A stretch of 64,000 bases of DNA from contig CAKOSZ010000001.1 of NCBI GenBank assembly GCA_934119955.1, positions 46,592 to 110,591 of the forward strand. The letters are read 5' to 3'. The translations under genes and the position numbers were made by a program. Under the pieces are notes generated by a model. That model did no database searches, was not told the DNA's origin, and worked only from the letters and a program-made list of their open reading frames with translations. Position 1 is the first letter of the stretch, and each line of letters starts with the position of its first letter. Source of the stretch: an uncultured Bacilli bacterium. GTDB lineage: Bacteria; Bacillota_I; Bacilli_A; RF39; UBA660. Positions 3,679 through 57,783 of the stretch are shown here, one piece after another.

Positions 3679-4908
3679 CTAGTTATTTTTTAACTCTTCT
3701 TCTATGCGCATTAATTGATTATATTTACAAATTCTATCTGTTCTTGACATAGAACCAGTTTTAATTTGACCAAGATTCAAGCCAACTGCTAAATCAGCAA
3801 TAGTAGTATCTTCGGTTTCTCCACTTCTATGAGAAATTACAGTATTATAATTATTCTTTTTAGCAAGGGCAATTGTTCTTAAAGTTTCCGTGATTGTTCC
3901 TATTTGATTAACTTTTAATAAAATTGCATTTCCTGCATGGTTATCAATTCCTTTTTGTAAATATTCTATATTAGTTACAAATAAATCATCACCTACTAAT
4001 TGAATTTTATCTCCTAGTCTTTCGGTTACTAATCTAAATCCTTCCCAGTCATTTTCATCTACTGGATCTTCAATTGAAATAATTGGATAAGTATTAATTA
4101 ATTCTTCATAATAGTCTATTAATTCTTGGGTTGTTAATTTCTTGTTTTCTCCTTTTAGATAATAGATACCATCTTCATAGAATTCACTGGCAGCAACATC
4201 AATTGCCATATTAACGTCAACTCCTGGGGTGTATCCTGCAAGTTTAATTGCTTCCATAATAAGTTCAAAACCCTCTTTATTAGTTTTTAAATTAGGAGCA
4301 AATCCTCCTTCATCTCCAACACTTGTAACATAACCTTTATCTTTTAAAACTTTCTTTAAATTATGAAATACTTCTGATCCTATTCTTACTCTTTCTTTTA
4401 TAGTATCAGCAGTTGGAATAATCATATATTCTTGGAAATCCAAGTTATTATCAGCATGAGCTCCTCCATTTATAATATTCATCATAGGACGTGGCATTGT
4501 AGTACCAGATCCAACATATTTATAAAGTGGCATTTTTTTCTCATTAGCTGCCGCTTTTAAACAGGCCATAGAAACACCTAAAATAGCATTTGCCCCGAAA
4601 TTAGATTTTGTTTTAGTTCCATCAAGTTCAATCATCATATCATCTATTTTTTCTTGATCAAAAACATCCATTCCAACAACTAAATTTCTAAGTTCATTAT
4701 TTACATGACTAACGGCTTTTAAAACTCCTTTTCCAAGGTAACGACTACCACCATCACGAAGTTCTAAGGCTTCTCTTTCCCCAGTTGATGCTCCACTTGG
4801 AACACATGCTCTTCCCATTACTCCACTTTCAAGAATTACATCAACTTCAACAGTTGGATTTCCTCTTGAATCCAAAATTTCTCTTCCTATTACATTTTTA
4901 ATTTTCAT
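3679..4908 (-). CDS. eno: Enolase (phosphopyruvate hydratase)
   Basis: N-terminal [30 protein letters not shown], and C-terminal [17 protein letters not shown] motifs. Confidence 0.95.
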
Positions 4909-11641: not shown

Positions 11642-12175
11642 ATGAATGAATTTAATGAACAAAACTTTTTAAACTATATAAAAACAACTAATATTTCATC
11701 AAATGAAATTAATTATTTAAAAAAATTATACAAAGTTTATAAATCACTTAATAAAATAACTGATAACGATATCAATAATAATATAATTAAAATAGCAGAT
11801 TTAGAAAATGAAATTTACACGGTAAATAATAATATTTTATCTCAATTTGATCGTATTAAAATAGAAATTATTAAAATTAAAAATGTTTATAATAAGGCTG
11901 ATCCCCTAACTCAAAGAAATGCTTTTCCTTATATTCGTAAATTGTATAATATTTTAAATAATGATAATTTCTCTTCGAATGAATACTTAGTTTTATATGC
12001 TAAAAAACTAGTTGTTACTATTCAATTAATTTTAAATATAAAAATAAACTTTTATTATGCTAGTTACCAAGTTTTTCTTGAAAAATATCGTAATTTAGAA
12101 TTATCTAATTTAAATAAAATAGAATATAAACCTATTAATAATAAAAGATTAATTAAAAAGGAGTTAAAGAAATGA
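11642..12175 (+). CDS. Hypothetical protein (operon gene 1 of 4)
   Basis: 177 aa, N/K/I-rich, no recognisable motif. AGGAG RBS. Stop overlaps next start (ATGA). Confidence 0.5.
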   Translation: MNEFNEQNFLNYIKTTNISSNEINYLKKLYKVYKSLNKITDNDINNNIIKIADLENEIYTVNNNILSQFDRIKIEIIKIKNVYNKADPLTQRNAFPYIRKLYNILNNDNFSSNEYLVLYAKKLVVTIQLILNIKINFYYASYQVFLEKYRNLELSNLNKIEYKPINNKRLIKKELKK

Positions 12176-13809
12176 ATATAGATAATTTTATAAGACAAAT
12201 AAAAACTAAACTTGATAAAGCTAAAATAGATTTGTTAAAAGAAAAAAATGAATTAGGTAAATTATCTTCTAAATTAATAGAATTTGATAATAATCTAGCA
12301 AATTTAAACTTAGACAATATTCAAGAAATCTTAATTTTATTAGAAAGTAAAGAAGAAGTAATTAAAGATATTCAATTTTTAAATTCTTATAAAGTACTTA
12401 TATCTTTTTTAAAAAATCCTCAAATAGAAAATGAAGGTGTTAAAAAAAATTTATTAGATGAATATAGTAGTTTAAAAGAAAAATTTAAAGTTAAGAAAAC
12501 TGAATTAATTGCTAAACAAAAATTATCTATTGAAAAACTTCAAGATTCAATTCTTGATTATACTAAATTAAAAAATTACTTAGAAAATTTAGATGGTGAT
12601 TATAGTTTAGAAGAAATAGATGAATTCATTGATTTATGTGAATTAATTGATATGAATCTTACTGATAGATTAAAATTAATTACTTATATTGGAAAAATTA
12701 GTCTTAAAGCATTTAAAAAGCGTAAAATAGAAGATAGTATTATTACCAAAGAAAATATTGAAGATATAATAGAACAAACTACTAAAAATGAGAAAAAAGT
12801 TGAAAAAAAATTAGAAATTGAAGATGACAAGGTTCTTGAAACTTTAACTGAGGAAGAAATAAAGACTAAAAAAGAAGAAGAAAGAAAATTTAAAGAAAAA
12901 GAGTTAATTTTAAAAGAATTAAGAAAAACTATTCAAGAAATATTAAAAGAACATAATGATATGTTAACTTACTATTATGATTTAAATGCTGGTAAAGATA
13001 TGTCTAAATCACCAATAAGTGCAAAAGACTATGGTATGTCATCTGGTATTATTCCCTATCTACTTGACTTAAAAAAAATTTTTGAGGATTCTTATGACAG
13101 TGATACTATTGATGATTGTATAGGACTTTCAAATATATCCTTAAAAGAATATAGAGAATATTTAGAAGTTGCTCCAAAGAAAGAAGAAGAAAAATCTAAT
13201 GATAGTGATACCTCACTAGATGATTTTACTAAAAAATCAGCCAATATTATTTTATTTTCTAAAAGTAATGATGAATATCAAATAGATCTTAATTTAAGAA
13301 GAGATGATGAAGATAAAAAAGCATTAAAAGAAAACGAATTAATAAAAGCTGTTAGATGCTTTGCTAATTCTACTTATATAGATGTTATAAGAGTTGGTTC
13401 TAACATTGATTTATTACATAAAGATGTTAAAAATAAATATAGAAAAAATTATGATAATGCCACAAGAGCATTCCGTCTAAGAGCAAGTGATAATTGTAGA
13501 ACTTGTTATGTAGTTGTTGATACTTGTGAAGAAAACATGAAAAAAATCAAGGAATTATATGGTAATAGTAATGTTACAGGTTCTGGAAGAGTTATTCTAA
13601 TATTCTCAGTTATTTGGGTTGATGCTAAACATAATGATGGTTATGATGAGGCTAATGATGATTTAAAAGATAACTTAGATTATATTCTTAAAATAAATAA
13701 ATTATTTAAAGATCCAAATACTAAAAAAGAAACTTTAAAAGAAATAATTGATGAAAGCATGACTAAATCTTTATCTATATTAAATAAAGAAAATAGTCTA
13801 CAAAGATAA
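12172..13809 (+). CDS. Hypothetical protein, 545 aa (operon gene 2); coiled-coil-rich N-half, Cys/Asp-rich C-terminal globular region
   Basis: Long charged K/E repeats. C-terminal CRTCYVVVDTCEE...RVILIFSVIWVDAKHNDG has loose D...D/E-x-K resemblance to PD-(D/E)XK nucleases (speculative). Confidence 0.5.
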   Translation: MNIDNFIRQIKTKLDKAKIDLLKEKNELGKLSSKLIEFDNNLANLNLDNIQEILILLESKEEVIKDIQFLNSYKVLISFLKNPQIENEGVKKNLLDEYSSLKEKFKVKKTELIAKQKLSIEKLQDSILDYTKLKNYLENLDGDYSLEEIDEFIDLCELIDMNLTDRLKLITYIGKISLKAFKKRKIEDSIITKENIEDIIEQTTKNEKKVEKKLEIEDDKVLETLTEEEIKTKKEEERKFKEKELILKELRKTIQEILKEHNDMLTYYYDLNAGKDMSKSPISAKDYGMSSGIIPYLLDLKKIFEDSYDSDTIDDCIGLSNISLKEYREYLEVAPKKEEEKSNDSDTSLDDFTKKSANIILFSKSNDEYQIDLNLRRDDEDKKALKENELIKAVRCFANSTYIDVIRVGSNIDLLHKDVKNKYRKNYDNATRAFRLRASDNCRTCYVVVDTCEENMKKIKELYGNSNVTGSGRVILIFSVIWVDAKHNDGYDEANDDLKDNLDYILKINKLFKDPNTKKETLKEIIDESMTKSLSILNKENSLQR

Positions 13810-13820
13810 GGAGTCTAACT

Positions 13821-15584
13821 ATGTATGATGAAAAAATAAAACAATTAATTAATTCTAGAATAAGTATGTTAGAAAATAAACTTCATAGTATAATTGATAC
13901 TTATCAAGAAAATAAAATAAGACTTGAAAAAATTATCAAAGATTTAAAAGAAATAAAAGAAGATTATACCAAAATTAAAACTTTTGATATAAAGCGTTTA
14001 AATAAAAATGAGCCTATTAATGAACCTATTTTAGACTCTTCACCAAGCATAGCAAATTTATCATTTTTTAGCCTTGCTTTAAATCAAGGTTGGATTTTAG
14101 AAAAAAGTGATATTAAAAAACTTAATTTCTTTGTTTTAGAATTTATTCAAGTATTTGAAAAAGAACTAGTTGAACTTGAAACAAATTATAAAAATAATCA
14201 AAATAGTAATGAAATTAATGATTTAAAAAATCTTCTTATTAAACTAAATAATTATAACTTAGAAGAAACTGATTTTGATTTACTAAAAGAAATATTAAGT
14301 GACAATACTAATTTAAGAGAATCAGTTGAAATTATGAAATATGTAGTACATAAAACTTTAAAAAATGCTTTAATTAATGATGATAGTATTTTACAAGAAA
14401 CTGGACTTGATATTGATAGTTTAAAAGAATTATTAAGTAAATATGATATTGATTTTGAAGAATTAAGACCTATTAGTAAAGAAGAATTACTTAAATATGG
14501 CTCTTTAACTAATATTTCTAATATTCTCTCTCTTTTAAAAGAAAATAACTTATTTAATAAAAATATTTATAATAGATATCAATTACCTATTACAAGAATT
14601 TTAATTTATTCAAATAAAGAATTAGTTGAAAGTATAATTAAATCTTATCAAAAAGCAAATATAAATATTAATTCTTTCTTAGATGAATTTTATAAAAGAC
14701 CTGCTAAGTTCATAAAAAGAAAAAGAAGATGGTATGGAAAAAATAATAAAACTGGTAATAAAAAGGAAAAAACAAGTAATGAAGATGAAATAGGTTCTTA
14801 TGAAGATTTTACCAGCAATATGGATTTATTCACTAGAATTGGAATAGATATAAATGAGGCTTATAAAAAAAGTTCTACTTTATTTGAAAAGGCACATAAT
14901 CATATTTTAATTGGTTACAATAATCTTAATTTATATGGTATAACACCTAATTACTATGCTAATACTTTAACAGTATTTAATACACATAAACAATTAGAAA
15001 CAATAGATATGTTTATAGAACTTGATGCTTATAATTATGTTTTAAATAATATGTCAAGAGTTAATTATACCCCTACTTCACTTATATTTCATAAATTATA
15101 TAGATTGAAAAAACAAGGAATTCCAGTTGCAACTCTTTATAGAAATAAAAAAGGTTCTATTGTTTTACCAATTCAAATTACAGATGAAAAATTAAGTTAT
15201 GATGGATTAAATAAAGATAATATGTTAACTGAAAATGGTATTTTTAAACCAGATAGTATTACTTTTAAAGTATATGATGAAATAATTAACCAAAATGATA
15301 ATAATTTTATTCAAGAAGGTATTTCAGATATTATTCAAAAGTTAGATGATGCTTACTTAGTAGAAAGTGAAGGTATTTTAGAAAATAAATTATATAACAT
15401 TGAAGGTACTATTATATCAAGACTTAAAGTACTTAGATATTTAACTACTTTAATATTTAATGGAATTAGTGAAAACAGTGATATGCTTTTATATGCAATT
15501 ACTAAAAATAGTTTATTAACAAAGGAAGAATTTGATAAAATTAAAACAAGTGTTGATAAATTATTAAATGAAAAAGTGAGGTAA
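13821..15584 (+). CDS. Hypothetical protein, 587 aa (operon gene 3)
   Basis: GGAG RBS 8 nt upstream. No recognisable domain. Confidence 0.5.
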   Translation: MYDEKIKQLINSRISMLENKLHSIIDTYQENKIRLEKIIKDLKEIKEDYTKIKTFDIKRLNKNEPINEPILDSSPSIANLSFFSLALNQGWILEKSDIKKLNFFVLEFIQVFEKELVELETNYKNNQNSNEINDLKNLLIKLNNYNLEETDFDLLKEILSDNTNLRESVEIMKYVVHKTLKNALINDDSILQETGLDIDSLKELLSKYDIDFEELRPISKEELLKYGSLTNISNILSLLKENNLFNKNIYNRYQLPITRILIYSNKELVESIIKSYQKANININSFLDEFYKRPAKFIKRKRRWYGKNNKTGNKKEKTSNEDEIGSYEDFTSNMDLFTRIGIDINEAYKKSSTLFEKAHNHILIGYNNLNLYGITPNYYANTLTVFNTHKQLETIDMFIELDAYNYVLNNMSRVNYTPTSLIFHKLYRLKKQGIPVATLYRNKKGSIVLPIQITDEKLSYDGLNKDNMLTENGIFKPDSITFKVYDEIINQNDNNFIQEGISDIIQKLDDAYLVESEGILENKLYNIEGTIISRLKVLRYLTTLIFNGISENSDMLLYAITKNSLLTKEEFDKIKTSVDKLLNEKVR

Positions 15585-20055: not shown

Positions 20056-21027
20056 TTAATTATTTAATTCTTTCTTGATGTTTTCTAATTCTTTTTGATT
20101 AAGATTAGTAATTTCCATTATTTCTAAATCACTCATATTTTTATTTAATAAATTTTTAACTATAAGGGTTTGATTTTCTTTTTTTCCTTCTATTTTCCCT
20201 TCAATTATTCCTTCTATTTTTCCTTCAATTATTCCTTCCATTTTTCCTTCAATTATTCCTTCGTTTTTTCCTTCAAGTTTCCCATCAGTTAATCCAGCTA
20301 AATAGTTTTCCTCGGCTCTTAAATTTCTTTCCATATCCTCAGTCATGATTTCCTCCAAATATTTATTATCATTAGATAAATTATATAACTTTTTACTATA
20401 ATAATTTAACTCTTCATATTTAGAAAACTTTTTTAATTTATCTTCTGTATCAACAGTTAGTAATTTATATAATTTATCATAATTATCAAGATTATCATAA
20501 CCTAATTTTTCATAATAATCAAGATTAATGTTAATTATTTTAATAAGATAATCAACATTATATAGTTCTTTTAAGATATCATCCATTGGATAATCATATG
20601 TAATTATTTTTTTAGAAGGAACTTTTTTACTAAGATTTTTAGTTTTATACCAATTAAGATTAACTAGTATTACTTTATAAAAATTTCCTTTATCATAGTA
20701 ATTATCTTTATCAAAATTATAATAATTAGATAAAGTATTCAAGGCATATAAAACATTTCTTAGATAAAAACCTTGATAATTATTATTAAGTTCTATTATT
20801 ATTTTTTGATTTTTATAAACAACTACTAAATCAACATATTTTACTCTTTCATTTTCATTAATTCTTGGTAGTCTAATATTTAAAACACTGACTTTTCCTT
20901 TAATCTCTTTTACATCACATTCAAGTATTTGAGATGAGGCCCATTCTAGTAAACTCATATCATTTTCATTAAATAAATCGTGAAATAACTTATCATATCT
21001 TACTTGTAAAATTTTCTTATTCTTCAT
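20056..21027 (-). CDS. Rpn family recombination-promoting nuclease / PD-(D/E)XK nuclease-family putative transposase (copy 1, with internal GIIEGKxE repeat expansion)
   Basis: N-terminal LFHDLF...ERVKYVDLVV...NQKIIIELNNNY pattern and C-terminal LEGKxEG repeats typical of Rpn/YhgA-like proteins. The first 251 aa are identical to the ORF at 56896. Confidence 0.6.
   Translation of the reverse strand: MKNKKILQVRYDKLFHDLFNENDMSLLEWASSQILECDVKEIKGKVSVLNIRLPRINENERVKYVDLVVVYKNQKIIIELNNNYQGFYLRNVLYALNTLSNYYNFDKDNYYDKGNFYKVILVNLNWYKTKNLSKKVPSKKIITYDYPMDDILKELYNVDYLIKIININLDYYEKLGYDNLDNYDKLYKLLTVDTEDKLKKFSKYEELNYYSKKLYNLSNDNKYLEEIMTEDMERNLRAEENYLAGLTDGKLEGKNEGIIEGKMEGIIEGKIEGIIEGKIEGKKENQTLIVKNLLNKNMSDLEIMEITNLNQKELENIKKELNN
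20197..20292. repeat. Four tandem copies of a 24-bp coding repeat (GIIEGK[MI]E) inside Rpn copy 1
   Basis: TTTTCCTTCAATTATTCCTTC[CT]AT repeated head-to-tail. Absent from copy 2. Confidence 0.7.
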
Positions 21028-21312
21028 TTTTTGCTCCTTTCTAATAAGTAATTTTAATAATAAAAATATTTAAGTTTTATAATTTTTTCTCATATTTACC
21101 TCCCAAATATAATATAAAAGATTAGTAAATGTTAGAAAAAAATTTTTTTATTTTTTAAAAGCCTTATTATATAAGGGTTTGAGAAAACTAAAATGTGAAA
21201 CTTGTTCACATTTAAAAAAATAAAGTTAATTTAATACTTTCTTTATTCAAAAATATACAATTTGTCAATTTTAAAATGCTATGTTATAATTACATATATT
21301 GGAGATGATTTT

Positions 21313-26711: not shown

Positions 26712-27938
26712 TTACTTATGTATAATAACATAATATTTCTTTTTACCTTTTCTAATAATAGTAAATTTATTATCAATAGCATTTTCACGTTTTACAACAA
26801 ATTCTAAATCATTTACTTTATCCCCATTAATAGAAATTGAATTATTTGTTATAAATTCTCTGGCTTCTCTTTTACTAGATGTTATGTTAGCATCTACTAA
26901 TAAATCTACTAAGTTAGTATCATTATCTATTTCATAACTATCCATTGATTTAGAAGCATCTAAAAGTTCATCATGAGATAATTCTTTAATGTTTCCTTTA
27001 AATAAAGCATCACTTATATGAACTGCTTTTAAGTATTCATCATGCCCATGTAAAAAGGTAATAATTTCTTCGGCTAGTTTTTTATGAGCAAGTCTTAAAT
27101 GAGGTTCATTTTTATTAACTTCTTCGTATTTTTCAATTTCTTCTTTGGTTAAGAAAGTATAAATTTTTAAATAATCAATTACCATACTATCTTCAACATT
27201 TACTAAGAATTGATATAATTCATATGATGAAGTTTTATTTTTATCAAGCCATAAAGCATTTCCTTCACTTTTACCAAATTTAACTCCTCTACTATCAGTT
27301 ACAAGTGGCATAGTAAAAGCATAGACAGTATCACCAGTTGCTTTTTTAATTAAATCAACTCCGGCTGTAATATTTCCCCATTGATCAGATCCTGCTACTT
27401 GTAAATCAACTCCATAATTTTCATGTAAATATTTAAAATCAAGTGCTTGTAAAATCATATAAGAAAATTCTGTAAAAGAAATTCCACTTTCAAGTCTTCT
27501 TCTAATAGTATCTTTATCTAGCATGTAGTTAATTGTAAAATATTTACCATAATCTCTTAAAAAATCAATCATATTAATATCTTTATACCAATCAAGATTA
27601 TTAACTACTTTAAAGCCAAAAATATCTTCAACTTGTTTTCTTAATCCCAAATAATTTTTTTCAATTACTTCTCTTGGAGTTCTATCTCTTTCACAAGTTG
27701 CCTTTGGATCACCGATTAAACCAGTTCCTCCTCCTACTAATAAAATAGGATTATGACCAGCATCTTTAAGTCGTTTAGTAATTAAAAAACTAGATAAATG
27801 ACCAATATGCATACTATCAGCAGTTGGATCAGTTCCAATATAAAATGTTAAACCTCCCTTATTAAGTTTTTCTTCAAGTTCAGGACTAGTAATATCTTTA
27901 ATAAGTCCTCTCCATTTTAATTCTTCAAATAAAGTCAT
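26712..27938 (-). CDS. tyrS: Tyrosine--tRNA ligase
   Basis: HIGH motif (SMHIGHL), KMSKS-type KFGKS, and C-terminal S4-like domain. Confidence 0.95.
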   Translation of the reverse strand: MTLFEELKWRGLIKDITSPELEEKLNKGGLTFYIGTDPTADSMHIGHLSSFLITKRLKDAGHNPILLVGGGTGLIGDPKATCERDRTPREVIEKNYLGLRKQVEDIFGFKVVNNLDWYKDINMIDFLRDYGKYFTINYMLDKDTIRRRLESGISFTEFSYMILQALDFKYLHENYGVDLQVAGSDQWGNITAGVDLIKKATGDTVYAFTMPLVTDSRGVKFGKSEGNALWLDKNKTSSYELYQFLVNVEDSMVIDYLKIYTFLTKEEIEKYEEVNKNEPHLRLAHKKLAEEIITFLHGHDEYLKAVHISDALFKGNIKELSHDELLDASKSMDSYEIDNDTNLVDLLVDANITSSKREAREFITNNSISINGDKVNDLEFVVKRENAIDNKFTIIRKGKKKYYVIIHK

Positions 27939-28195
27939 TTTTTCCTCCTATAAAAAAACATTACAAACTAAGGACGAAATAACCGTGGTACCACCTTATT
28001 TTGTAATGAATTACACTTATTACGATAACGCGTTTAGCGATTTAACTCCATTTAGGTAATTTCCATATTAAACCGATTAGTTTCCACCACCCACTAACTC
28101 TCTAAACCAAATTTAATACTTAAAACTAAATTTCTTTGTTAAATATGACTATATAATAACATATTTATTTAAAATTGCAAATAGTTTTTTTAATA
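27939..28195 (-). promoter_or_regulatory. T-box riboswitch leader of tyrS
   Basis: Minus-strand RNA contains AGAGAGUUAGUGGGUGGUGGAAAC stem I start, T-box sequence AAGGUGGUACCACGG (plus-strand aaccgtggtaccacctt at 27981-27997), and a U-run before the AGGAGG RBS. Confidence 0.75.
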
Positions 28196-28233
28196 AAAAT
28201 GGAATTTTAATTTATCTATTTAAACTAAAAGTA

Positions 28234-29937
28234 TTATTCTGCACTTATAATATAAGGATCATTTATACTTCCTGTTCCAGATATAATATTCGTTTGGGAT
28301 CCAAGACTTAAGACTGGACGAAGAGCGTCATAGCTATCAGGATCCGGCCAGCCTAAGTCAATGCCGTAGCGCCAGTCAGCCGCCCCCACGGAAAGCCCAG
28401 CAATAGGAGAAAGAAGCCAGAAAGCTGCTTGATCATTTAGCATCCAATTATTATAATTTTTATTTGCATAAACTGCTAAAACTTGATCCCCCCAACCACT
28501 TGGAATTCTTGCATATCCTAAATCACTTGGATATAATAAAGCAATTTTTCCATTCCATGTTGCTTGATTATTTTCTATTATATTACTCTCATCTCTTTCC
28601 ATTGCATATATTTCTTTTAATGTTCCATCATCTAATCCACCTAAATAATATTTCATATTCTCAATTAAATTACTATTTTCTAAACTATTTAAATAATTTT
28701 CATTTAAGTAATACATACTTACTGCTTTTGTCCAATCGTTATAATTCGTTTCTACACTTGATGGGTTATTCCAATAAAAATATTTATATTTTGTTCCTGT
28801 AACTTCTGTATTAAATACTTGATAAGTAATATTATCTTTTGTAATAGTCGCTGGCACTTCTGTACTTAAACTAATTGGTTCATCTTTTACTAGTTTTATT
28901 CTTTCAGCCTTTTCCCCATTTGCATTTTCTTCATTAAATATCCCCACTATTCTCCAAGTCTCATTATTAAATGTTACATAATTTCTTATTCCACTATCTG
29001 TTGGTATTGTTTGATTATTCTTTATACTTATAGTTGTTCCTCCAATATCAGTGCATGTCTTACCCATTATGTCAAACAAATCATTGTCTTCTGTTACAAC
29101 AAATTCTACATCACCTGATACATAACATGCTGTTTGAGGACAAGTATTACCTGAAACAGATATATTATAATCATTTGTTCCATCTGTATATGTACAATAA
29201 TTTCCTATTCCAGAATAACGATATTCTCTTATTGTTCCACCTGTTGTTGCTAGATCACCATCTGTGTTAACAGCCACAAGTCCATCTTGATTAGCACCAT
29301 TATATCTATTTTTTACTGTTTCAACAAAATTTGTTGGTGCTTCATATTTTCCATTTACATTTACTTTTATACTTGCAAATAAGTTTGACCAATCAGTTAA
29401 ATTATAGTCACAATTATCTGTTATATCTCCACTACATATATTAACACTTTCATCTATCCACATATATAATCTATATATTTTTGTTATTTTACTTGTTGTG
29501 TTTGCAGGTATTGTACTACTATATATTGTTGTATTATTAATATTTTCTATTGTTAATTTATCTTGTAAAATATTTTCTTGATTATTGTTAACTTCAACTA
29601 AACTAAATTTCAAGAATTTGTCTTCTATTCTTGTTTTATTTGCTTCTGTATCTCCATGAACTAATTCGATATTATAATTTACTCCATATTTTGTATGAGT
29701 ATTTTTTCCATCTATAGTAAATTCAAAATATTTAGTAGGATCATAAGTGCTACTTGGCATAGCACCTTCTATTTTAAATTCATTTGTTTCATTATAATGC
29801 ATATAGATGTCCCCTACTACAAGACTTGAATTATTAATACTTACCTTATTATAAGTAAAAAATGCAAATGATACTCCTATTGTTAATACTAAGATTGCTA
29901 TTACACTTAATACTATTATTAATTTTTTATTTTTCAT
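28234..29937 (-). CDS. Large secreted/surface-anchored protein (paralog A), N-terminal signal-anchor, Cys-containing extracellular region
   Basis: MKNKKLIIVLSVIAILVLTIGVSFAFF signal/TM. C-terminus ...RPVLSLGSQTNIISGTGSINDPYIIS shares a module with the 47683 gene. Confidence 0.5.
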   Translation of the reverse strand: MKNKKLIIVLSVIAILVLTIGVSFAFFTYNKVSINNSSLVVGDIYMHYNETNEFKIEGAMPSSTYDPTKYFEFTIDGKNTHTKYGVNYNIELVHGDTEANKTRIEDKFLKFSLVEVNNNQENILQDKLTIENINNTTIYSSTIPANTTSKITKIYRLYMWIDESVNICSGDITDNCDYNLTDWSNLFASIKVNVNGKYEAPTNFVETVKNRYNGANQDGLVAVNTDGDLATTGGTIREYRYSGIGNYCTYTDGTNDYNISVSGNTCPQTACYVSGDVEFVVTEDNDLFDIMGKTCTDIGGTTISIKNNQTIPTDSGIRNYVTFNNETWRIVGIFNEENANGEKAERIKLVKDEPISLSTEVPATITKDNITYQVFNTEVTGTKYKYFYWNNPSSVETNYNDWTKAVSMYYLNENYLNSLENSNLIENMKYYLGGLDDGTLKEIYAMERDESNIIENNQATWNGKIALLYPSDLGYARIPSGWGDQVLAVYANKNYNNWMLNDQAAFWLLSPIAGLSVGAADWRYGIDLGWPDPDSYDALRPVLSLGSQTNIISGTGSINDPYIISAE

Positions 29938-30162
29938 ACTTAACTCCTTTTCTTGAATAATTGCCCCTCTATTCTAATATAATTTTATTTTAACGTAGTT
30001 TTTATTTATTATAAAGTATTTTTATGTCTAAAAAAATCGTATTATGTGGACTATAAAAAAACATGATTAAGTTTACAGTTTATCTGTAATTTTTAGTAAT
30101 GTTTTTAAGTATCAATTATATATAATAATTCTTTACAAACTCTTTTACTTAGTTGGTTTTTC

Positions 30163-30246
30163 TTAGATATTTCTACCCCCCCCCCATGTAAAGTTTTGTA
30201 AAGTTAGAGTTTGATTAGTTGTAAAGCAATTATTTGGTTTATTCAT
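30163..30246 (-). CDS. Mini-ORF (27 codons, MNKPNNCFTTNQTLTLQNFTWGGGRNI) containing a G10 homopolymer; upstream ORF/leader peptide of surface locus A
   Basis: AAGGAG RBS 8 nt before the ATG. Conserved with the mini-ORF at 49740-49817. The G-run encodes the GGG tail. Confidence 0.4.
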   Translation of the reverse strand: MNKPNNCFTTNQTLTLQNFTWGGGRNI

Positions 30247-30272
30247 GAAAATCAACTCCTTATCATGTAAAA

Positions 30273-30301
30273 ATCATATCATGTTTTTATATATTTTTCA
30301 A
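30273..30301 (-). promoter_or_regulatory. Sigma-A-type promoter TTGAAA-17-TATGAT driving the mini-ORF/surface locus A
   Basis: Read on the minus strand: TTGAAA (30301-30296), 17-nt spacer, TATGAT (30278-30273). Confidence 0.55.
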
Positions 30302-30362
30302 GGGGTATTAGTTGCATTTTTATTAATTTTATGATATAATATGCGTACTTTGGGGGAATAAT

Positions 30363-31370
30363 ATGTTTACATGTAATAATATTAACTTATTAACTTTTAC
30401 TTATTATTTAAAGATTGTAATAGCCTCTTGTATGACTATTGTTCCTTTTATCTATTTAGAAATGATTTTTATTAGAATGATTAAATATAAGAAAAAGTTT
30501 GGTTTTATTAATAAATATTATAATAAATATTATATAAAAAAACAATTAAAAATATTTAGTCATTCTTTAATAATTTTTGTACTTGCATTTATATTACATA
30601 ATACTTTAAATAAAGAAACTAATGTTTGTTATAACTATGCTACTCCTAAGGTTTATAATAAATATAAAAGTGTTTATAAATCTTTAAAAAATAAAAATAT
30701 AAATGAAAATATTAAAAATAATTATTTAGAAAATACTATTATAATTGCTTTAAATGATAATAGTTCTAATAATAAAACTAATAATTTTAGTAACTTAGTT
30801 AATGTGGTTAAAGAAGAAGTTCAGGAAGAAGAAAAGAAAGATACTTTTAATTTAAATGAAACTGATTTAAATATGCAAAATAAAGTTTATGTTTCAAATG
30901 GAGTATTTTATTATCCAAAATATCAATATGGTAATTATAAAACTTATACAGGTATATCTTGTCCTAGTAATCCTTTAAATGAAGGTTTTAATAATCCTTA
31001 TGGATATAATAATTATTTTTATACAAGACTAACAAAGTTTGTTGAAGAAGCAAGTAAACTTGGTTATAAAATAACAATTAGTAGTCAAGGTTGTAGAAGT
31101 TATCAAACTCAGGTTCATTATTATAATACAATGACAAGAGGAAGAGCAGCACCTCCTGGTTATTCTTATCATGGTCTTGGTATTGCATCTGATTTAGAAT
31201 TTTATCATAGTGATGGTAGTGTTTGTGGTTATGGTAGAAATGATTATAATTGTCCTAGTATGGGTTGGGCTCATAATAATGCTAGTAATTTTGGTTTAAC
31301 ATTTCCTCTTTTAAATGCAAGTTACAGGGAAGATTGGCATATTGAACCTATAAATAAAAGTGGCTATTAA
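30363..31370 (+). CDS. M15 family metallopeptidase (VanY-like D-Ala-D-Ala carboxypeptidase), membrane-anchored
   Basis: SYHGLGIASDL (SxHxxGxAxD) and EDWHIE motifs of the LAS/M15 fold. N-terminal TM. Confidence 0.7.
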   Translation: MFTCNNINLLTFTYYLKIVIASCMTIVPFIYLEMIFIRMIKYKKKFGFINKYYNKYYIKKQLKIFSHSLIIFVLAFILHNTLNKETNVCYNYATPKVYNKYKSVYKSLKNKNINENIKNNYLENTIIIALNDNSSNNKTNNFSNLVNVVKEEVQEEEKKDTFNLNETDLNMQNKVYVSNGVFYYPKYQYGNYKTYTGISCPSNPLNEGFNNPYGYNNYFYTRLTKFVEEASKLGYKITISSQGCRSYQTQVHYYNTMTRGRAAPPGYSYHGLGIASDLEFYHSDGSVCGYGRNDYNCPSMGWAHNNASNFGLTFPLLNASYREDWHIEPINKSGY

Positions 31371-32396: not shown

Positions 32397-33332
32397 TTAA
32401 TAAAATTTTGATATTTTTTTCAAAATACTTCTAGTAACTTTAATTGCTTCATAAGCTTGTGTATCAGTTACCTCATTACCCTTGTGAATAGCTTTATTTC
32501 TAATTTCTGTTACAACTTTTATATCAGCAAAAGATATATCAAAATTTAACAAACCTAATAACTTATATTTTGCATATAAAGTCTTATAATCTTCTGATAA
32601 ATTCTTAACATTCAATTTCTTTTGTATTTCTTCTATTTTGGAAGTTATTGCAATTTCACAGGCAGTTGATAAATCTAAAATGCATTTTCTATTATCATAT
32701 CTTTCATACGATTCAATTCCACTAACCAAAAAATCATACTCTATTGGAATTAGAATTTGTTTGCTAATTATATTTAGCATTTTTTCTAATTGTTTTTTTG
32801 TTATAGACTTATTATCATCATGTATATGCATAAATATTTCTTCTTCTTCGATATTAGGTATTCTTTTACCACTCAAATCATCATATAAATTTATTTCACA
32901 ACTTCTTTGCTCAGCAAAAGCATTTGGACATATATCTTCATTTATTATATAGCATAACTTATAAAGTGATTGTATTGTTTTATTAATACCGTCGTATATT
33001 AAATTAATTTTTTTCTCTTGCACAGGTTCTTCTAACTCTACCGACACAACTACTTTTTCAATCTCACTACTAACCTCAGGATAACTACGAGGCATACCAT
33101 AAAAAATTTCTTTATTTCCAACTTTATATTTTCTAGAAATTGGTGGTGATGATAGAGGGCAATGTAATTTATCTTTAATATCATCGTCTTGCCATTGTGA
33201 AGGAATATCAGGAAAATGCAGTTTCATATCCAATCCATTAATACTAAAATCAAATATTTTGCCTAAAACATTTTTTGCAAAATATCTATTAAAATTCACA
33301 TCTACGAATGAAATTATAATTTTATTTTTCAT
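32397..33332 (-). CDS. Hypothetical protein with C-terminal Rx4H (HEPN-like) motif
   Basis: 311 aa. C-terminal EIRNKAIHKGNEV supplies an Rx4H motif embedded in predicted helices. No other recognisable domain. Confidence 0.35.
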   Translation of the reverse strand: MKNKIIISFVDVNFNRYFAKNVLGKIFDFSINGLDMKLHFPDIPSQWQDDDIKDKLHCPLSSPPISRKYKVGNKEIFYGMPRSYPEVSSEIEKVVVSVELEEPVQEKKINLIYDGINKTIQSLYKLCYIINEDICPNAFAEQRSCEINLYDDLSGKRIPNIEEEEIFMHIHDDNKSITKKQLEKMLNIISKQILIPIEYDFLVSGIESYERYDNRKCILDLSTACEIAITSKIEEIQKKLNVKNLSEDYKTLYAKYKLLGLLNFDISFADIKVVTEIRNKAIHKGNEVTDTQAYEAIKVTRSILKKISKFY

Positions 33333-46841: not shown

Positions 46842-47630
46842 TTATTTACCAGTTTTTTTTCTTTCTTCTAATAATTTACTTTGATAAGATTCATAAACAG
46901 TTAATTTATTTTTAATACTTTGAGAATTAAAGTTTTCTAATATATTATAACTATTTAAACCATTTAAACGAATTTCAATTTCTAAGGCTTTGGAATTTTT
47001 TAATAAATTTTGTTGAAAATTTAATTTATGAAAACATAATTCTATTCTTTTATTAACATCTCTTATTAAATTTTCTTTTTCTAAACTTGTTAATTCATTT
47101 ATTTTATTTTCCAATGTATCCATGATAATTACTTGAATTTTATCTAAATAATTAAATGAACTAATAGATAAATCATGAAATTCTTGAAAACCTTCTAATT
47201 CTTTTTTATAATTTTCTAAAAAAGAAGGATTTATATTTTTAGAACTTTTATTTCTAAGAAAAAATTCATCTGTTAAATTATAACTTCTAACTTTAATTAT
47301 ATTTTTATAACTTTGAATATTATCTTCAAGAGATAACATACTATCAAATAAAGAAGCATAGATATCCATTATTTCAATAGATTGAGTATGTGGTAATTTA
47401 ACCTTAATATTTTGAATTATTAAATTCAATAAACTATTCATATAATTATTCTTTAAATAATTAACAGCAGAATAATTTAAATATAAATCAACTAATTCCT
47501 TCAAATTCAAAACAGATAACTGATTCTCAATTTCTTCTAAAAGAATATCAAACTTTCTTTTATAAATATTTTCATATTCATCTTGTTTATTATAATACTT
47601 TATATACGTTTCTACTAAATAAATATTCAT
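46842..47630 (-). CDS. Hypothetical protein downstream of surface locus B
   Basis: 262 aa, helical/charged, no motif. Confidence 0.45.
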   Translation of the reverse strand: MNIYLVETYIKYYNKQDEYENIYKRKFDILLEEIENQLSVLNLKELVDLYLNYSAVNYLKNNYMNSLLNLIIQNIKVKLPHTQSIEIMDIYASLFDSMLSLEDNIQSYKNIIKVRSYNLTDEFFLRNKSSKNINPSFLENYKKELEGFQEFHDLSISSFNYLDKIQVIIMDTLENKINELTSLEKENLIRDVNKRIELCFHKLNFQQNLLKNSKALEIEIRLNGLNSYNILENFNSQSIKNKLTVYESYQSKLLEERKKTGK

Positions 47631-47682: not shown

Positions 47683-49539
47683 TTATTTAAGAGCAATAGT
47701 AAATGGATTACTTTTAGTTCCATCTCCACCTGTTATAACGATATTTGATTTTAGATATATTGATGGACGAGCAGCAATAGTAGTGGAAAGTTTGATGAAG
47801 CTAACATCACCGGTTTTTTCAGTGTAATAAACACGAGAAGAGCTAGAAGGTGTTATTAACCACATACTACTTGAACCAGAATAACCACCTCCTTGTTGAC
47901 TGGCAAACATTTCTCCGTATCTTGGTAGCCCTACATAACCAGTATTCCAAATACTTGTTGTTTTAACACAATCTTTTGTTATTTCAGTGGTATTATTTGT
48001 ATTACATAAAGAATTTTTATAACTTGTACCTCTAGATATTTCTTTTATATAATATGTTCCTTTGTCTAACATATTTTTTTGTGCTAAACTATTATACCAA
48101 GTATTATTTAAATAATAATCCCAGTAATCATCACTATCTCCATTTCCATATGGTGTACTTGTACTAAACTTTTTAGTTAAAGTAGTTGTACCATTTTTTA
48201 TATAATCATTTTTATTTAATTTAACTTTCTCGTCTTCAATACTTACTATTCTATACAATTCTTTGGTTGTATTATTACCATCTTCGTCAAATATTACATA
48301 CTCACCTATTGTTCTTGTATTTAATAAAGTTGTATTTGCTGTTGCCGGTTCCTTATCTCCTAAAATTGTATATGGATCATCTTTGGTTCCCGAACCACCT
48401 AAAAGTTGGATATTTGATTTTAGATTTATTGACGGGCGAACACCATAGGTACTGGAAGGACTGCCGACGCCGTTGCTATCATTACCGCTGTTAGTAACAG
48501 CCCAAACATAAGAAGAGCTACAAGGATTTAATAACCACCAATCATAGCCTATATTTAAATAACCACCTGGGTATCCTATGTTTCCTATGTTTTTATAACT
48601 TAAATAATATTCATGCCTATTTAATAGCCCTACTGATGTATTCTTACCAATTGTAGAATTGTTTATTAAAGGTGTTATATTCCATGTACTATCTTCAACT
48701 ATTATATTTTGATAATTATATAAAGTATCTAAAAAGTCTTCATTTAACCATTGATACATGTATGATCCAGTATATGTTGTATCATCTTTTTTAGATATAT
48801 CATAAAAATTTACATCACTTCCGTAAGAAATAGTTGTAATTACATCATCTGTTATCATTTTCATAGTTCCATCAGAATTAATGGCTGTTATTCGCCAAAG
48901 TTTGCCACTATACCAAACATAATTAAAGTTTATACAAGTACTTGTTCCTGATATATAAGTTATACCATCTTCTTCTACTTTGGTTTTACATGAACCTGTT
49001 GGATTATTAACACTTGTTGCAATTGCATCTTTAACTGGTACTCCTAAGGTTTCATTTAGTTTTAATTCTATTCCTTGTTCAAGGGGAATTGGATAACCTG
49101 TTAAGCCTCCTTGGGTACCTAGTTTAATTGTTATGTCATTTTCTCCTATGTTTGTAAATGTAAAACTAAATGATTTAGATGAAGTCATATCACCTTCAAC
49201 TATATTATTTGTAAATGTTTCTGTTGATGTTACATTGAATAAAGATATACCTGACACTACTTCATAGTACATTTTATATGCTATTTGATTTGTTAATTCT
49301 GTTGTTAAATTAACAGTTAAAGTAATACTGCTTCCTTTTGGAATTGTAAAAGTATTATTCTCTTGATTTACTACTGTTGTTGTTATATTAATGGATGCTG
49401 TTTTTAAAACTATAACACTATTTTTTATAACTGATACTTCATAATATGCATACGATGAATACATTCCTATTGATAATACACACATTAATACTAAAAATAC
49501 TATAATTTTTTTATTTAAATTAATTTCTTTATCTAACAT
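47683..49539 (-). CDS. Large secreted/surface-anchored protein (paralog B) with two C-terminal repeat modules
   Basis: Signal-anchor. Modules ...RPSINLKSNIQLLGGSGTKDDPYTI and ...RPSIYLKSNIVITGGDGTKSNPFTI, related to the C-terminus of the 28234 gene. Confidence 0.5.
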   Translation of the reverse strand: MLDKEINLNKKIIVFLVLMCVLSIGMYSSYAYYEVSVIKNSVIVLKTASINITTTVVNQENNTFTIPKGSSITLTVNLTTELTNQIAYKMYYEVVSGISLFNVTSTETFTNNIVEGDMTSSKSFSFTFTNIGENDITIKLGTQGGLTGYPIPLEQGIELKLNETLGVPVKDAIATSVNNPTGSCKTKVEEDGITYISGTSTCINFNYVWYSGKLWRITAINSDGTMKMITDDVITTISYGSDVNFYDISKKDDTTYTGSYMYQWLNEDFLDTLYNYQNIIVEDSTWNITPLINNSTIGKNTSVGLLNRHEYYLSYKNIGNIGYPGGYLNIGYDWWLLNPCSSSYVWAVTNSGNDSNGVGSPSSTYGVRPSINLKSNIQLLGGSGTKDDPYTILGDKEPATANTTLLNTRTIGEYVIFDEDGNNTTKELYRIVSIEDEKVKLNKNDYIKNGTTTLTKKFSTSTPYGNGDSDDYWDYYLNNTWYNSLAQKNMLDKGTYYIKEISRGTSYKNSLCNTNNTTEITKDCVKTTSIWNTGYVGLPRYGEMFASQQGGGYSGSSSMWLITPSSSSRVYYTEKTGDVSFIKLSTTIAARPSIYLKSNIVITGGDGTKSNPFTIALK

Positions 49540-49739
49540 ATAAACTCCTTTTTGCCTCAGTATTCCAATACAATTTTATTTTAACATATATTTTATTTTT
49601 ATTAAACAAGTTAATTAGATTTTAAAATCATATTATATGGACATGTAAAAAACATGATTAAAAATCACAGATTGACTGTAAACTTAATCATGTTTTAATT
49701 TTAATTATTTTATTACAAAGCTTCTTGTTTAATAAGGGA

Positions 49740-49817
49740 TTATATCCCCCCCCCCCATGTAAAGTTTTGTAAAGTTAGAGTTTGATTAGTTGTAAAGTAA
49801 TTATTTAGTTTATTCAT
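49740..49817 (-). CDS. Mini-ORF (25 codons, MNKLNNYFTTNQTLTLQNFTWGGGI) containing a G11 homopolymer; upstream ORF of surface locus B
   Basis: AAGGAG RBS. Paralog of the 30163-30246 mini-ORF. Confidence 0.4.
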   Translation of the reverse strand: MNKLNNYFTTNQTLTLQNFTWGGGI

Positions 49818-49843
49818 TAAAACCAACTCCTTATCATATGAAA

Positions 49844-49872
49844 ATGATATCATGTTTTTACTTGTTTTTCAA
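49844..49872 (-). promoter_or_regulatory. Sigma-A-type promoter TTGAAA-17-TATCAT for the mini-ORF/surface locus B
   Basis: Minus strand: TTGAAA (49872-49867), 17-nt spacer, TATCAT (49849-49844). Confidence 0.5.
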
Positions 49873-56364: not shown

Positions 56365-56615
56365 ATATCCTCCTTTAAAATAAAAGCACTGATTAAAAGA
56401 GGCGACTAATCACGGTACCACTCTTCTTATCAGTGCTTGATATCTCTTCTTGATAACGGTTATAAACCGATATTTTCTACTAAATTCAAAAATATACTCC
56501 ACAGTGTTATTCTTATATTCTTCCTGTTAATTTTCACCAACCATTAACTCTCTAAATGTAACTAAATATAATACTTCTCTGTATCATCGCTTTGATTAGT
56601 TATATTATATAACCT
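56365..56615 (-). promoter_or_regulatory. T-box riboswitch leader of asnS
   Basis: Minus-strand RNA has AGAGAGUUAAUGGUUGGUGAAAA stem I start, T-box AGAGUGGUACCGUGAUUAG, and terminator inverted repeat AAGCACUGAU...AUCAGUGCUUUU followed by a U-run. Confidence 0.7.
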
Positions 56616-56692: not shown

Positions 56693-57783
56693 TAATTAAC
56701 TTTTTTTAAAAATGTGAACAAGTTTCACATTTTAGTTTTCTCAAACCCTTATAGAATAAGACTTTTAAAAAATAAAAAAATTTTTTTCTAACATTTACTA
56801 ATCTTTTATATTATATTTGGGAGGTAAATATGAGAAAAAATTATAAAACTTAAATATTTTTATTATTAAAATTACTTATTAGAAAGGAGCAAAAAATGAA
56901 GAATAAGAAAATTTTACAAGTAAGATATGATAAGTTATTTCACGATTTATTTAATGAAAATGATATGAGTTTACTAGAATGGGCCTCATCTCAAATACTT
57001 GAATGTGATGTAAAAGAGATTAAAGGAAAAGTCAGTGTTTTAAATATTAGACTACCAAGAATTAATGAAAATGAAAGAGTAAAATATGTTGATTTAGTAG
57101 TTGTTTATAAAAATCAAAAAATAATAATAGAACTTAATAATAATTATCAAGGTTTTTATCTAAGAAATGTTTTATATGCCTTGAATACTTTATCTAATTA
57201 TTATAATTTTGATAAAGATAATTACTATGATAAAGGAAATTTTTATAAAGTAATACTAGTTAATCTTAATTGGTATAAAACTAAAAATCTTAGTAAAAAA
57301 GTTCCTTCTAAAAAAATAATTACATATGATTATCCAATGGATGATATCTTAAAAGAACTATATAATGTTGATTATCTTATTAAAATAATTAACATTAATC
57401 TTGATTATTATGAAAAATTAGGTTATGATAATCTTGATAATTATGATAAATTATATAAATTACTAACTGTTGATACAGAAGATAAATTAAAAAAGTTTTC
57501 TAAATATGAAGAGTTAAATTATTATAGTAAAAAGTTATATAATTTATCTAATGATAATAAATATTTGGAGGAAATCATGACTGAGGATATGGAAAGAAAT
57601 TTAAGAGCCGAGGAAAACTATTTGGCCGGATTAACTGATGGGAAACTTGAAGGAAAAAATGAAACTCAAACTCTTATTGTTAAAAATTTATTAAAAAATT
57701 CTATTCCTGATGATATTATTATAAACTCAACTAATATATCTTATGAAAAATTAGAAAATATCAAGAAAGAATTAAATAATTAG
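56693..57783. repeat. Right arm of ~1.15 kb inverted repeat (partner at 20056..21232)
   Basis: Reverse complement of the left arm, including the leader with palindrome AATGTGAACAAGTTTCACATT and the 7-codon mini uORF. Confidence 0.8.
56896..57783 (+). CDS. Rpn family recombination-promoting nuclease / PD-(D/E)XK nuclease-family putative transposase (copy 2, no repeat expansion)
   Basis: Residues 1-251 are identical to the 20056-21027 product. C-terminus ...ETQTLIVKNLLKNSIPDDIIINSTNISYEKLENIKKELNN. Confidence 0.6.
   Translation: MKNKKILQVRYDKLFHDLFNENDMSLLEWASSQILECDVKEIKGKVSVLNIRLPRINENERVKYVDLVVVYKNQKIIIELNNNYQGFYLRNVLYALNTLSNYYNFDKDNYYDKGNFYKVILVNLNWYKTKNLSKKVPSKKIITYDYPMDDILKELYNVDYLIKIININLDYYEKLGYDNLDNYDKLYKLLTVDTEDKLKKFSKYEELNYYSKKLYNLSNDNKYLEEIMTEDMERNLRAEENYLAGLTDGKLEGKNETQTLIVKNLLKNSIPDDIIINSTNISYEKLENIKKELNN

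Follow-up and report, generated by a model that had tools for sequence, protein, structure and literature searches.

In gut phages, DUF6273 has been described as a C-type-lectin-like domain that is a target of diversity-generating retroelements (DGRs) and carries the variable region at its C-terminus. Here, two paralogous genes, A and B, were analyzed in a 64-kb stretch of DNA from an uncultured Bacilli bacterium (64,000 nt of contig CAKOSZ010000001.1, hereafter the window). They very probably encode secreted DUF6273 lectin-fold proteins whose hypervariable patch is a DGR variable region. They are similar to the phage targets (tentaclins, Mtd-like proteins and those of Toutatisvirus) in the Pfam domain, the C-type-lectin-like fold and the C-terminal variable region, and in both groups one template repeat serves two DUF6273 variable regions. 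The A/B family differs from the phage proteins in being chromosomal and in having a signal peptide and, where those have Ig/Fn3 domains, a TasA-like N-domain. The searches gave no phage context for it, its genes carry poly-G leaders, and its template repeats often lie beside the target with no reverse transcriptase (RT) in the recovered sequence. The chromosomal location, the TasA-like N-domain and the poly-G leaders appear to be new for DUF6273 DGR targets.

The classical DGR proteins, Mtd of Bordetella phage and TvpA of Treponema denticola, share with this family a lectin-fold scaffold that tolerates massive variation. Their systems are also alike in the Asn-codon template repeat, the adenine-specific changes and the presence of Avd and RT, which here were found in relatives of A and B. 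A further system is the immunoglobulin A (IgA) peptidase of Thomasclavelia ramosa (PDB 9qa6), whose N-terminal domain was annotated as DUF6273 in one paper and described in a second one as C-type-lectin-like and dispensable for IgA cleavage. In that enzyme, the lectin-like domain is N-terminal, joined to an M64 catalytic domain and not known to be hypervariable, whereas A and B have no peptidase domain. From the TasA/camelysin family with its SipW-type signal peptides, A and B differ in that none of the TasA, camelysin and SipW-signal models of Pfam and NCBIfam matched either protein, and that no sipW gene was seen in the scanned parts of the window. Because NCBIfam gave no matches on A and B, the SipW-signal and camelysin models have no support here.

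Domain architecture of A and B

Both open reading frames (ORFs) were found on the minus strand with the lengths given in the preliminary description of this DNA. The two genes and their parts are listed below.

28234..29937, minus strand: paralog A, 567 aa, with signal peptide, TasA-like N-domain, unique middle domain and one DUF6273-like lectin-fold domain
29863..29937, minus strand: signal peptide or N-terminal hydrophobic helix of A (residues 1-25), ending GVSFA/FFTY (the slash marks the putative cleavage site), recognized from the sequence and aligning with the N-terminus of B
29338..29829, minus strand: N-terminal beta-sandwich domain of A (residues ~37-200), homologous to the N-domain of B
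28987..29337, minus strand: A-specific middle domain (residues 201-317), no match to B, entropy 1.56, not adenine-depleted
28237..28986, minus strand: DUF6273-like C-type-lectin-fold domain of A (residues 318-567)
28237..28482, minus strand: module copy 1 as delimited in the preliminary description (A residues 486-567), by BLASTP, alignment and local hidden Markov models (HMMs)
47683..49539, minus strand: paralog B, 618 aa, with signal peptide, N-domain and two DUF6273 domains
49045..49401, minus strand: N-terminal beta-sandwich domain of B (residues ~47-165), by AlphaFold2 (AF2; predicted local distance difference test, pLDDT, 85-90) and by hhalign to the N-domain of A
48355..48957, minus strand: DUF6273 domain 1 of B (residues ~195-395), holding module copy 2, by Pfam PF19789
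47686..48342, minus strand: DUF6273 domain 2 of B (residues ~400-618), holding module copy 3, by hhalign against domain 1

The preliminary description had held that A and B share only a C-terminal module, present once in A and twice in B, and that their N-terminal and central regions are unrelated. The number of copies was confirmed. The alignment placed them at A residues 486-567, B 318-395 and B 545-618, and local HMMs run on the window returned exactly these three and none elsewhere. Their similarity is far above chance both by BLASTP (E 5e-6 and 4e-4) and in profile-profile comparison of the A domain and the B domains (probability 98-99%, E 2e-14 to 7e-22). The restriction of homology to the module was not upheld. 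With hhalign profiles built from 51-52 homologs of each protein, A 318-567 matched B 183-395 over 183 columns (probability 98.3%, E 2e-14) and B 396-618 (99.3%, E 3e-20), and the two B domains matched each other (99.4%, E 7e-22). The homology thus covers the entire domain of ~200-250 aa, well beyond the module. The N-terminal domains of A and B are also homologous (94.7%, E 6e-8), and their signal-anchor regions align by BLASTP. The sole A-specific part, with no B match by hhalign, comprises residues ~200-317.

The domain itself was identified through Pfam, in which DUF6273 (PF19789) matched B residues 226-375 with 30.4 bits, passing the cutoff of 23.5. A itself gave no DUF6273 match in Pfam, and 5 of its 51 aligned homologs did. 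An HMM of the three module copies found 5055 representative clusters at E <= 1e-3 among 1.84 billion, with up to 11 module copies per protein. DUF6273 accounted for four of the five top matches checked; in three of them the best match runs to the end of the 172-position DUF6273 profile, starting at position 114, 30 or 35. The module corresponds to profile positions ~114-172. Because of these DUF6273 matches and the repeated occurrence per protein, it is the C-terminal end of a known repeatable domain. The preliminary description had treated it as new; the HMM search and Pfam both point to a known domain, a result that it had itself named as contrary to that reading. The module is the C-terminal third of DUF6273 and no stand-alone C-terminal unit. 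It is made up of a framework strand W-x-L-x-P, a hypervariable surface patch of ~25-30 residues, a conserved (A/V)-R-P-S/V-I/L-x-L strand at the 3′ boundary of the variable region, and the closing strands with the linker G-x-G-T/S-x-x-D/N-P-Y/F-x-I.

In the preliminary description, this module had been read as the C-terminal unit that anchors the proteins of a surface-antigen family or nucleates their fold. It is indeed the most recognizable common motif and stands at the C-terminus of both proteins, and the reported absence of LPXTG, which leaves room for an unknown anchor, was borne out when both C-termini were inspected. However, the module is internal in B, is part of DUF6273 with as many as 11 copies in one protein elsewhere, and holds the least conserved stretch. 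No hydrophobic or charged tail lies behind it, and both proteins end 3-5 residues past the D/N-P-Y/F-x-I motif. In the IgA peptidase, moreover, a domain of this type stands at the N-terminus, and anchoring falls to a separate sortase signal. An anchoring role is therefore highly improbable. In A and B, only the N-terminal signal peptide or anchor is membrane-associated. Like their relatives, the two proteins open with a hydrophobic helix that ends in G-x-(S/T)-(F/Y)-A and leads into an aromatic-rich strand.

The AF2 model of A reached a pLDDT of 83.8 and a predicted template modelling score (pTM) of 0.70. In the case of B, the model was confident only in the N-domain (pLDDT 85-90) and the remainder failed. 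The DUF6273 domain here has a C-type-lectin-like fold, and a Foldseek search against viral models led to gut-phage proteins named 'DUF6273 domain-containing'. The PDB sequence search with B gave one insignificant match (E 0.76), and PDB searches with both family profiles were empty.

The composition of the proteins had been described as rich in Cys, Asn, Thr and Tyr. This holds for Thr (9-12% against a background of 5.2%). A and B are not Cys-rich, because their Cys content is 1.0-1.1% against 0.8%, and the excess of Asn (11.5% and 9.2% in the two proteins against 9.0%) and Tyr (6.7-7.1% against 5.8%) is only marginal. Trp (1.9% against 0.4%), Gly and Ser are enriched. The window is part of a 316-kb contig of a Hadza human-gut metagenome, and the few named homologs come from metagenome-assembled genomes labelled 'Erysipelotrichaceae bacterium' or 'Bacilli bacterium'. 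A and B are members of a single modular family of proteins secreted by an uncultured low-GC spore-forming gut bacterium (Erysipelotrichaceae / Bacilli).

Hypervariable patch and the retroelement beside relatives

Column entropy was calculated from homologs at least 70% identical and had a mean of 0.55. It rose to 2.1 and 1.7 within A 511-540 and to 2.2 in both B 346-360 and B 571-585. The high-entropy positions fall exactly between the W-x-L-x-P and R-P motifs. The patches have the following composition (NNY, codons ending in a pyrimidine).

28315..28407, minus strand: core of the A variable region (residues 511-541), G+C 60%, adenine 13%, NNY codons 71%
Rest of A, minus strand: G+C 27%, adenine 44%, NNY codons 47%
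48436..48513, minus strand: core of B variable region 1 (residues 343-368), G+C 50%, adenine 19%, NNY 96%, aligned to the L088 template repeat
47767..47838, minus strand: core of B variable region 2 (residues 568-591), partly decayed, G+C 39%, adenine 25%, NNY 88%, with K and E codons

Outside the variable regions, the G+C fraction is 0.27-0.29, that of adenine 0.42-0.44, and NNY codons make up ~47%; the G+C content of the window is ~24%. Most residues of the patch belong to the set that AAY codons can reach (N, S, T, Y, H, D, G, A, C, F, I, L, P, R and V). A codon alignment of near homologs showed more variation at positions 1 and 2 than at position 3 inside variable region 1 only. Adenine depletion and NNY codons were found in the variable regions of the window, together with the excess variation at positions 1 and 2 in variable region 1, and the composition of the patch is the signature of DGR mutagenesis.

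Variable region 2 of B is off the family pattern: it has Lys/Glu codons, its G+C is lower, and its differences from the template repeat of a relative are not biased to adenines. It looks like a decaying variable region. The middle domain of A holds a second variable loop (residues 268-300, window 29038-29136), which is indel-rich and lies between conserved Cys residues. Because there is no adenine depletion in it, this loop varies by ordinary means.

A metagenome scan yielded 79 related loci. In L084, L088 and L089, the B homolog P0123, which is 82% identical to B, adjoins a DGR cassette. Its 3′ side carries, in this order, a terminator, the template repeat (SSSNVWNVNNNGNANNNNPSSTNGTR), a spacer of ~240 nt, a 98-aa ORF, a 109-aa ORF and a 320-aa RT. 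A stretch of the template repeat reads SSSNVWNVNNNGNANNNN... The RT matched RVT_1 (E 7e-21) and shows IGSVCSQ as well as YMDD motifs, and the 109-aa ORF matched the DGR Avd model over its full length with an E of 6e-6 but fell short of the model cutoff. In the 54-nt mutagenic stretch of P0123, as read from alignments, the mismatches stand at template adenines in 10 of 10 cases in variable region 1 and in 8 of 8 in variable region 2. Farther 3′, all variable regions, including variable region 1 of B in the window, have common bases unlike the template repeat, which is what one expects of a pair of initiation-of-mutagenic-homing sites (IMH / IMH*).

An A-type relative, P0040 (L087), has a template repeat of its own ~300 nt downstream (L087 3938-4071). 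Changes there affect 15 of the 29 adenine sites and 5 of the 90 remaining ones (p 1.5e-7). In four loci, sequences resembling a template repeat and showing adenine bias lie just 3′ of the targets (L023 4556-4840; L020 11445-11620; L070 2440-2535; L078 915-1020). The repeat in L023 (GSSNVRNVNNNGNLNNNSPSSNTNAVRP) comes after two tandem targets that join an A-type N-domain with two B-type domains. It is followed by ~190 nt, a terminator and lysS, and so looks like a stand-alone template RNA gene. No RT was found near the template repeats of L023, L020, L070, L078 and L087 in the recovered sequence. The contigs often stop at template repeats. In a search with tblastn using RT and Avd, the only find beyond the cassette loci was a 54-residue fragment, 70% identical to the DGR RT, at L047 9121-9282, ~370 nt 3′ of a family member from the rumen; it is apparently what remains of a cassette since lost.

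In the relatives, RT and its Avd-like partner would copy the RNA of the Asn-codon-rich template repeat with misincorporation opposite template adenines, and the cDNA would then overwrite the variable region. We put the number of different binding sites that the 11 Asn codons of the template would allow on an unchanging scaffold at roughly 10^13. We infer that the variable regions of A and B were written by a retroelement that lies outside the 64-kb window or has since been lost.

Proteins of this type could also belong to a prophage, as receptor-binding proteins of the tentaclin or Mtd-like kind resident in the chromosome; DUF6273 DGR targets were described in gut phages, and it was phage DUF6273 proteins that Foldseek found. 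A scan of viral contigs, however, gave no relative, and both genes sit among housekeeping genes: A next to a VanY-type peptidase gene and to tyrS, whose T-box lies at 27967-28145, and B next to clpC and an asparaginyl/aspartyl-tRNA synthetase gene. The signal peptides are of the Sec type, and the DGR of L088 is placed between purA/ppiB and sporulation genes. A phage origin of A and B is thus scarcely credible.

Several observations weigh against a DGR origin of the patches in this genome. No template repeat was detected in the window by exact-seed repeats or by adenine-tolerant ungapped scans with a shuffled null, and neither RT nor Avd was found there by tblastn with RT and Avd sequences. Nor did local HMMs reveal orphan module copies in the window as a trace of a template repeat, and two regular-expression scans of 83 sequences (757,976 nt) for an RT motif returned nothing. 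A strain from another sample (L092) has a 2.5-kb locus 98.7% identical (1.3% differing) in which the A variable region is identical, and the exact B protein occurs on 13 contigs; because of both, there is no sign of ongoing diversification here. Against the template repeat of a relative, variable region 1 of B has three non-adenine differences and a 6-nt insertion in the mutagenic stretch, and variable region 2 shows no adenine bias (p 0.66). A GC-rich hairpin 3′ of the variable region is required in the DGR system of Bordetella phage, and only 1 of 158 variable regions of the family has, within the 90 nt on its 3′ side, a GC-rich stem of 5 bp or more. Finally, the binding of ligands by these proteins, and their location at the cell surface or in a matrix, is something we only infer.

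The Bordetella-type hairpin requirement may not be universal. The DNA coding for GGSGT was considered as the downstream GC-rich hairpin and dropped, because such hairpins are essentially absent from the family. One sample (ERZ15610550) contains a tyrS locus 97.8% identical to that of the window (coverage 4.9) together with the P0123-DGR locus (coverage 5.4), which is a hint that the species still carries the cassette. The variable regions of the window look retroelement-written and now static or rarely rewritten, with diversification either historical or rare.

If exposed loops of the lectin fold had varied through ordinary diversifying selection and recombination, no retroelement would be needed, and the DGR cassettes of relatives would be irrelevant to A and B. 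The lack of a template repeat and RT in the window, the static variable regions of close strains, the non-adenine differences to the nearest known template repeat and the A loop that varies without adenine depletion all agree with this view. What selection leaves unexplained is the signature at the synonymous level, with NNC/NNY codons and an adenine content of 13-25% restricted to the patch in a genome of 24% GC, as well as the Asn-codon template repeats beside both A-type and B-type relatives. We consider selection without a retroelement unlikely, and retain the DGR origin of the patches. The broader picture drawn in the preliminary description, a secreted, variable and probably ligand-binding (adhesin-like) family with unusual poly-G leaders, is supported.

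Poly-G leaders upstream of the genes

Each gene is preceded by a leader with a G tract, and expression would probably be gated there, separately from the rewriting.

30058..30301, minus strand: A leader, with promoter TTGAAA-17-TATGAT at 30273-30301, short ORF at 30163-30246, G10 at 30176-30185, and hairpin with U-run at 30058-30106
49648..49872, minus strand: B leader, with promoter at 49844-49872, short ORF at 49740-49817, G11 at 49746-49756, and hairpin with U-run at 49648-49696

The leader promoters read TTGAAA-17-TATGAT or TATCAT with an upstream TG. After a ribosome-binding site, the short ORF begins MNK(P/L)NN(C/Y)FTTNQTLTLQNFTWGGG... The G10 of A and the G11 of B are the only G runs of at least 8 in the window. 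The hairpins were overlooked by a simple terminator scan, because their loops are beyond its limits, and folding was used; that of B has -19 kcal/mol (z -5.1) and that of A is weaker (-7.9). The same layout, with unrelated sequences and G7-G9 tracts, was found 5′ of distant family members. The leader is also present in L002, L003, L083, L086, L087, L059, L066, L067, L072, L074 and L080, with G7-G11 overall. Rfam, run on the A leader region (window 27900-30400), gave only the tyrS T-box and no leader family.

In silico, one tract length in three extends the leader ORF so that its stop codon comes just ahead of the hairpin or 4-10 nt into its 5′ arm. The remaining two frames end 28 nt or more upstream of the hairpin (four loci with the outer hairpin detected). 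In the positional ortholog L086, the tract is G9 and the leader is naturally in the long frame, and B is in a short frame. In L087 the G tract is interrupted. A long homopolymer with length differences between related loci is the mark of phase variation at a contingency locus, and the leaders that had been suspected of it were recovered with such tracts on both genes (G10 and G11 against G9 in L086). From these tract lengths, the A and B leaders are probably phase-variable. We propose that they act by slippage-controlled transcription attenuation; a literature search with the obvious terms found no description of slippage-controlled leader attenuation. Two other ideas were given up: the G tract as a promoter spacer was rejected on the inconsistent spacing of the hexamers across loci, and the assignment of the long leader frame to the ON state was withdrawn, as L087 is locked in a short frame with its interrupted tract.

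More tentatively, two systems might be stacked in this family: a chromosomal non-phage DGR that rewrites the lectin-fold binding sites in several dispersed targets, and a switch made of the poly-G leader ORF and the terminator. The template repeats would then adjoin the targets, away from the RT, and a slipped-strand change at the G tract would switch transcriptional read-through into the big gene. We hold this combination to be possible and rather doubtful.

The accessory operon of the DGR (98-aa ORF, Avd-like ORF and RT) has overlapping stops and starts, and opens with ATG...ATT-GGGGGGG (L084/L085 3828-3860; L088 10328-10360; L089 ~4756-4790). At G7, the frame that starts from the ATG runs into a stop after 14 codons, and G6 would fuse the ATG to the 98-aa ORF. 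As this tract splits the ATG from the ORF, the diversifier itself may be phase-variable.

The slot of A is occupied differently in a strain with an identical tyrosyl-tRNA synthetase protein (97.8% nt identity nearby), which has an entirely different gene there (L091 2-1303); this gene 5′ of tyrS has leucine-rich-repeat-like sequence, as judged by eye. L083 carries a homolog 79% identical to A in another genomic context with the same leader. The unit of leader and gene behaves as a movable cassette.

Genomic surroundings and meaning of the family

The T-box 5′ of tyrS (27967-28145, minus strand) scored 71 bits in Rfam (E 8e-15) and did not reach the gathering score of 93. A stretch of 63 nt at 56506-56568, 5′ of the asparaginyl/aspartyl-tRNA synthetase gene, is 71% identical to part of it and is probably a second T-box. 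Directly 3′ of B lies a 262-aa ORF whose synteny is kept in L001 and L086. ORFs with no Pfam match have 545, 587, 311 and 262 aa (window 12172-15584, plus strand; 32397-33332, minus strand; 46842-47630, minus strand). An inverted repeat of 961 nt with 99% identity was found at 20260-21220 and 56703-57663. It spans most of a 323-aa ORF (20056-21027) that contains a 12-nt tandem repeat (20176-20307) coding for (E/K)G(K/I)IEG units. As the two copies flank ~35 kb holding both A and B, a large inversion is conceivable.

Through the analysis, what seemed an orphan motif becomes a recognizable functional unit that provides scaffold and boundary for a binding site written by a retroelement. An uncultured lineage of the human gut and the rumen (Erysipelotrichaceae / Bacilli) stands out as a carrier of chromosomal, host-encoded hypervariable lectin-fold proteins, which have so far been described mostly from phages and a few pathogens. 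The leader layout, if confirmed, would be a compact coupling of homopolymer slippage to transcription termination. The family provides material for studying how DGR targets persist after loss or silencing of the retroelement, how one retroelement might serve dispersed targets, and how expression switching and hypermutation go together in gut colonisation.

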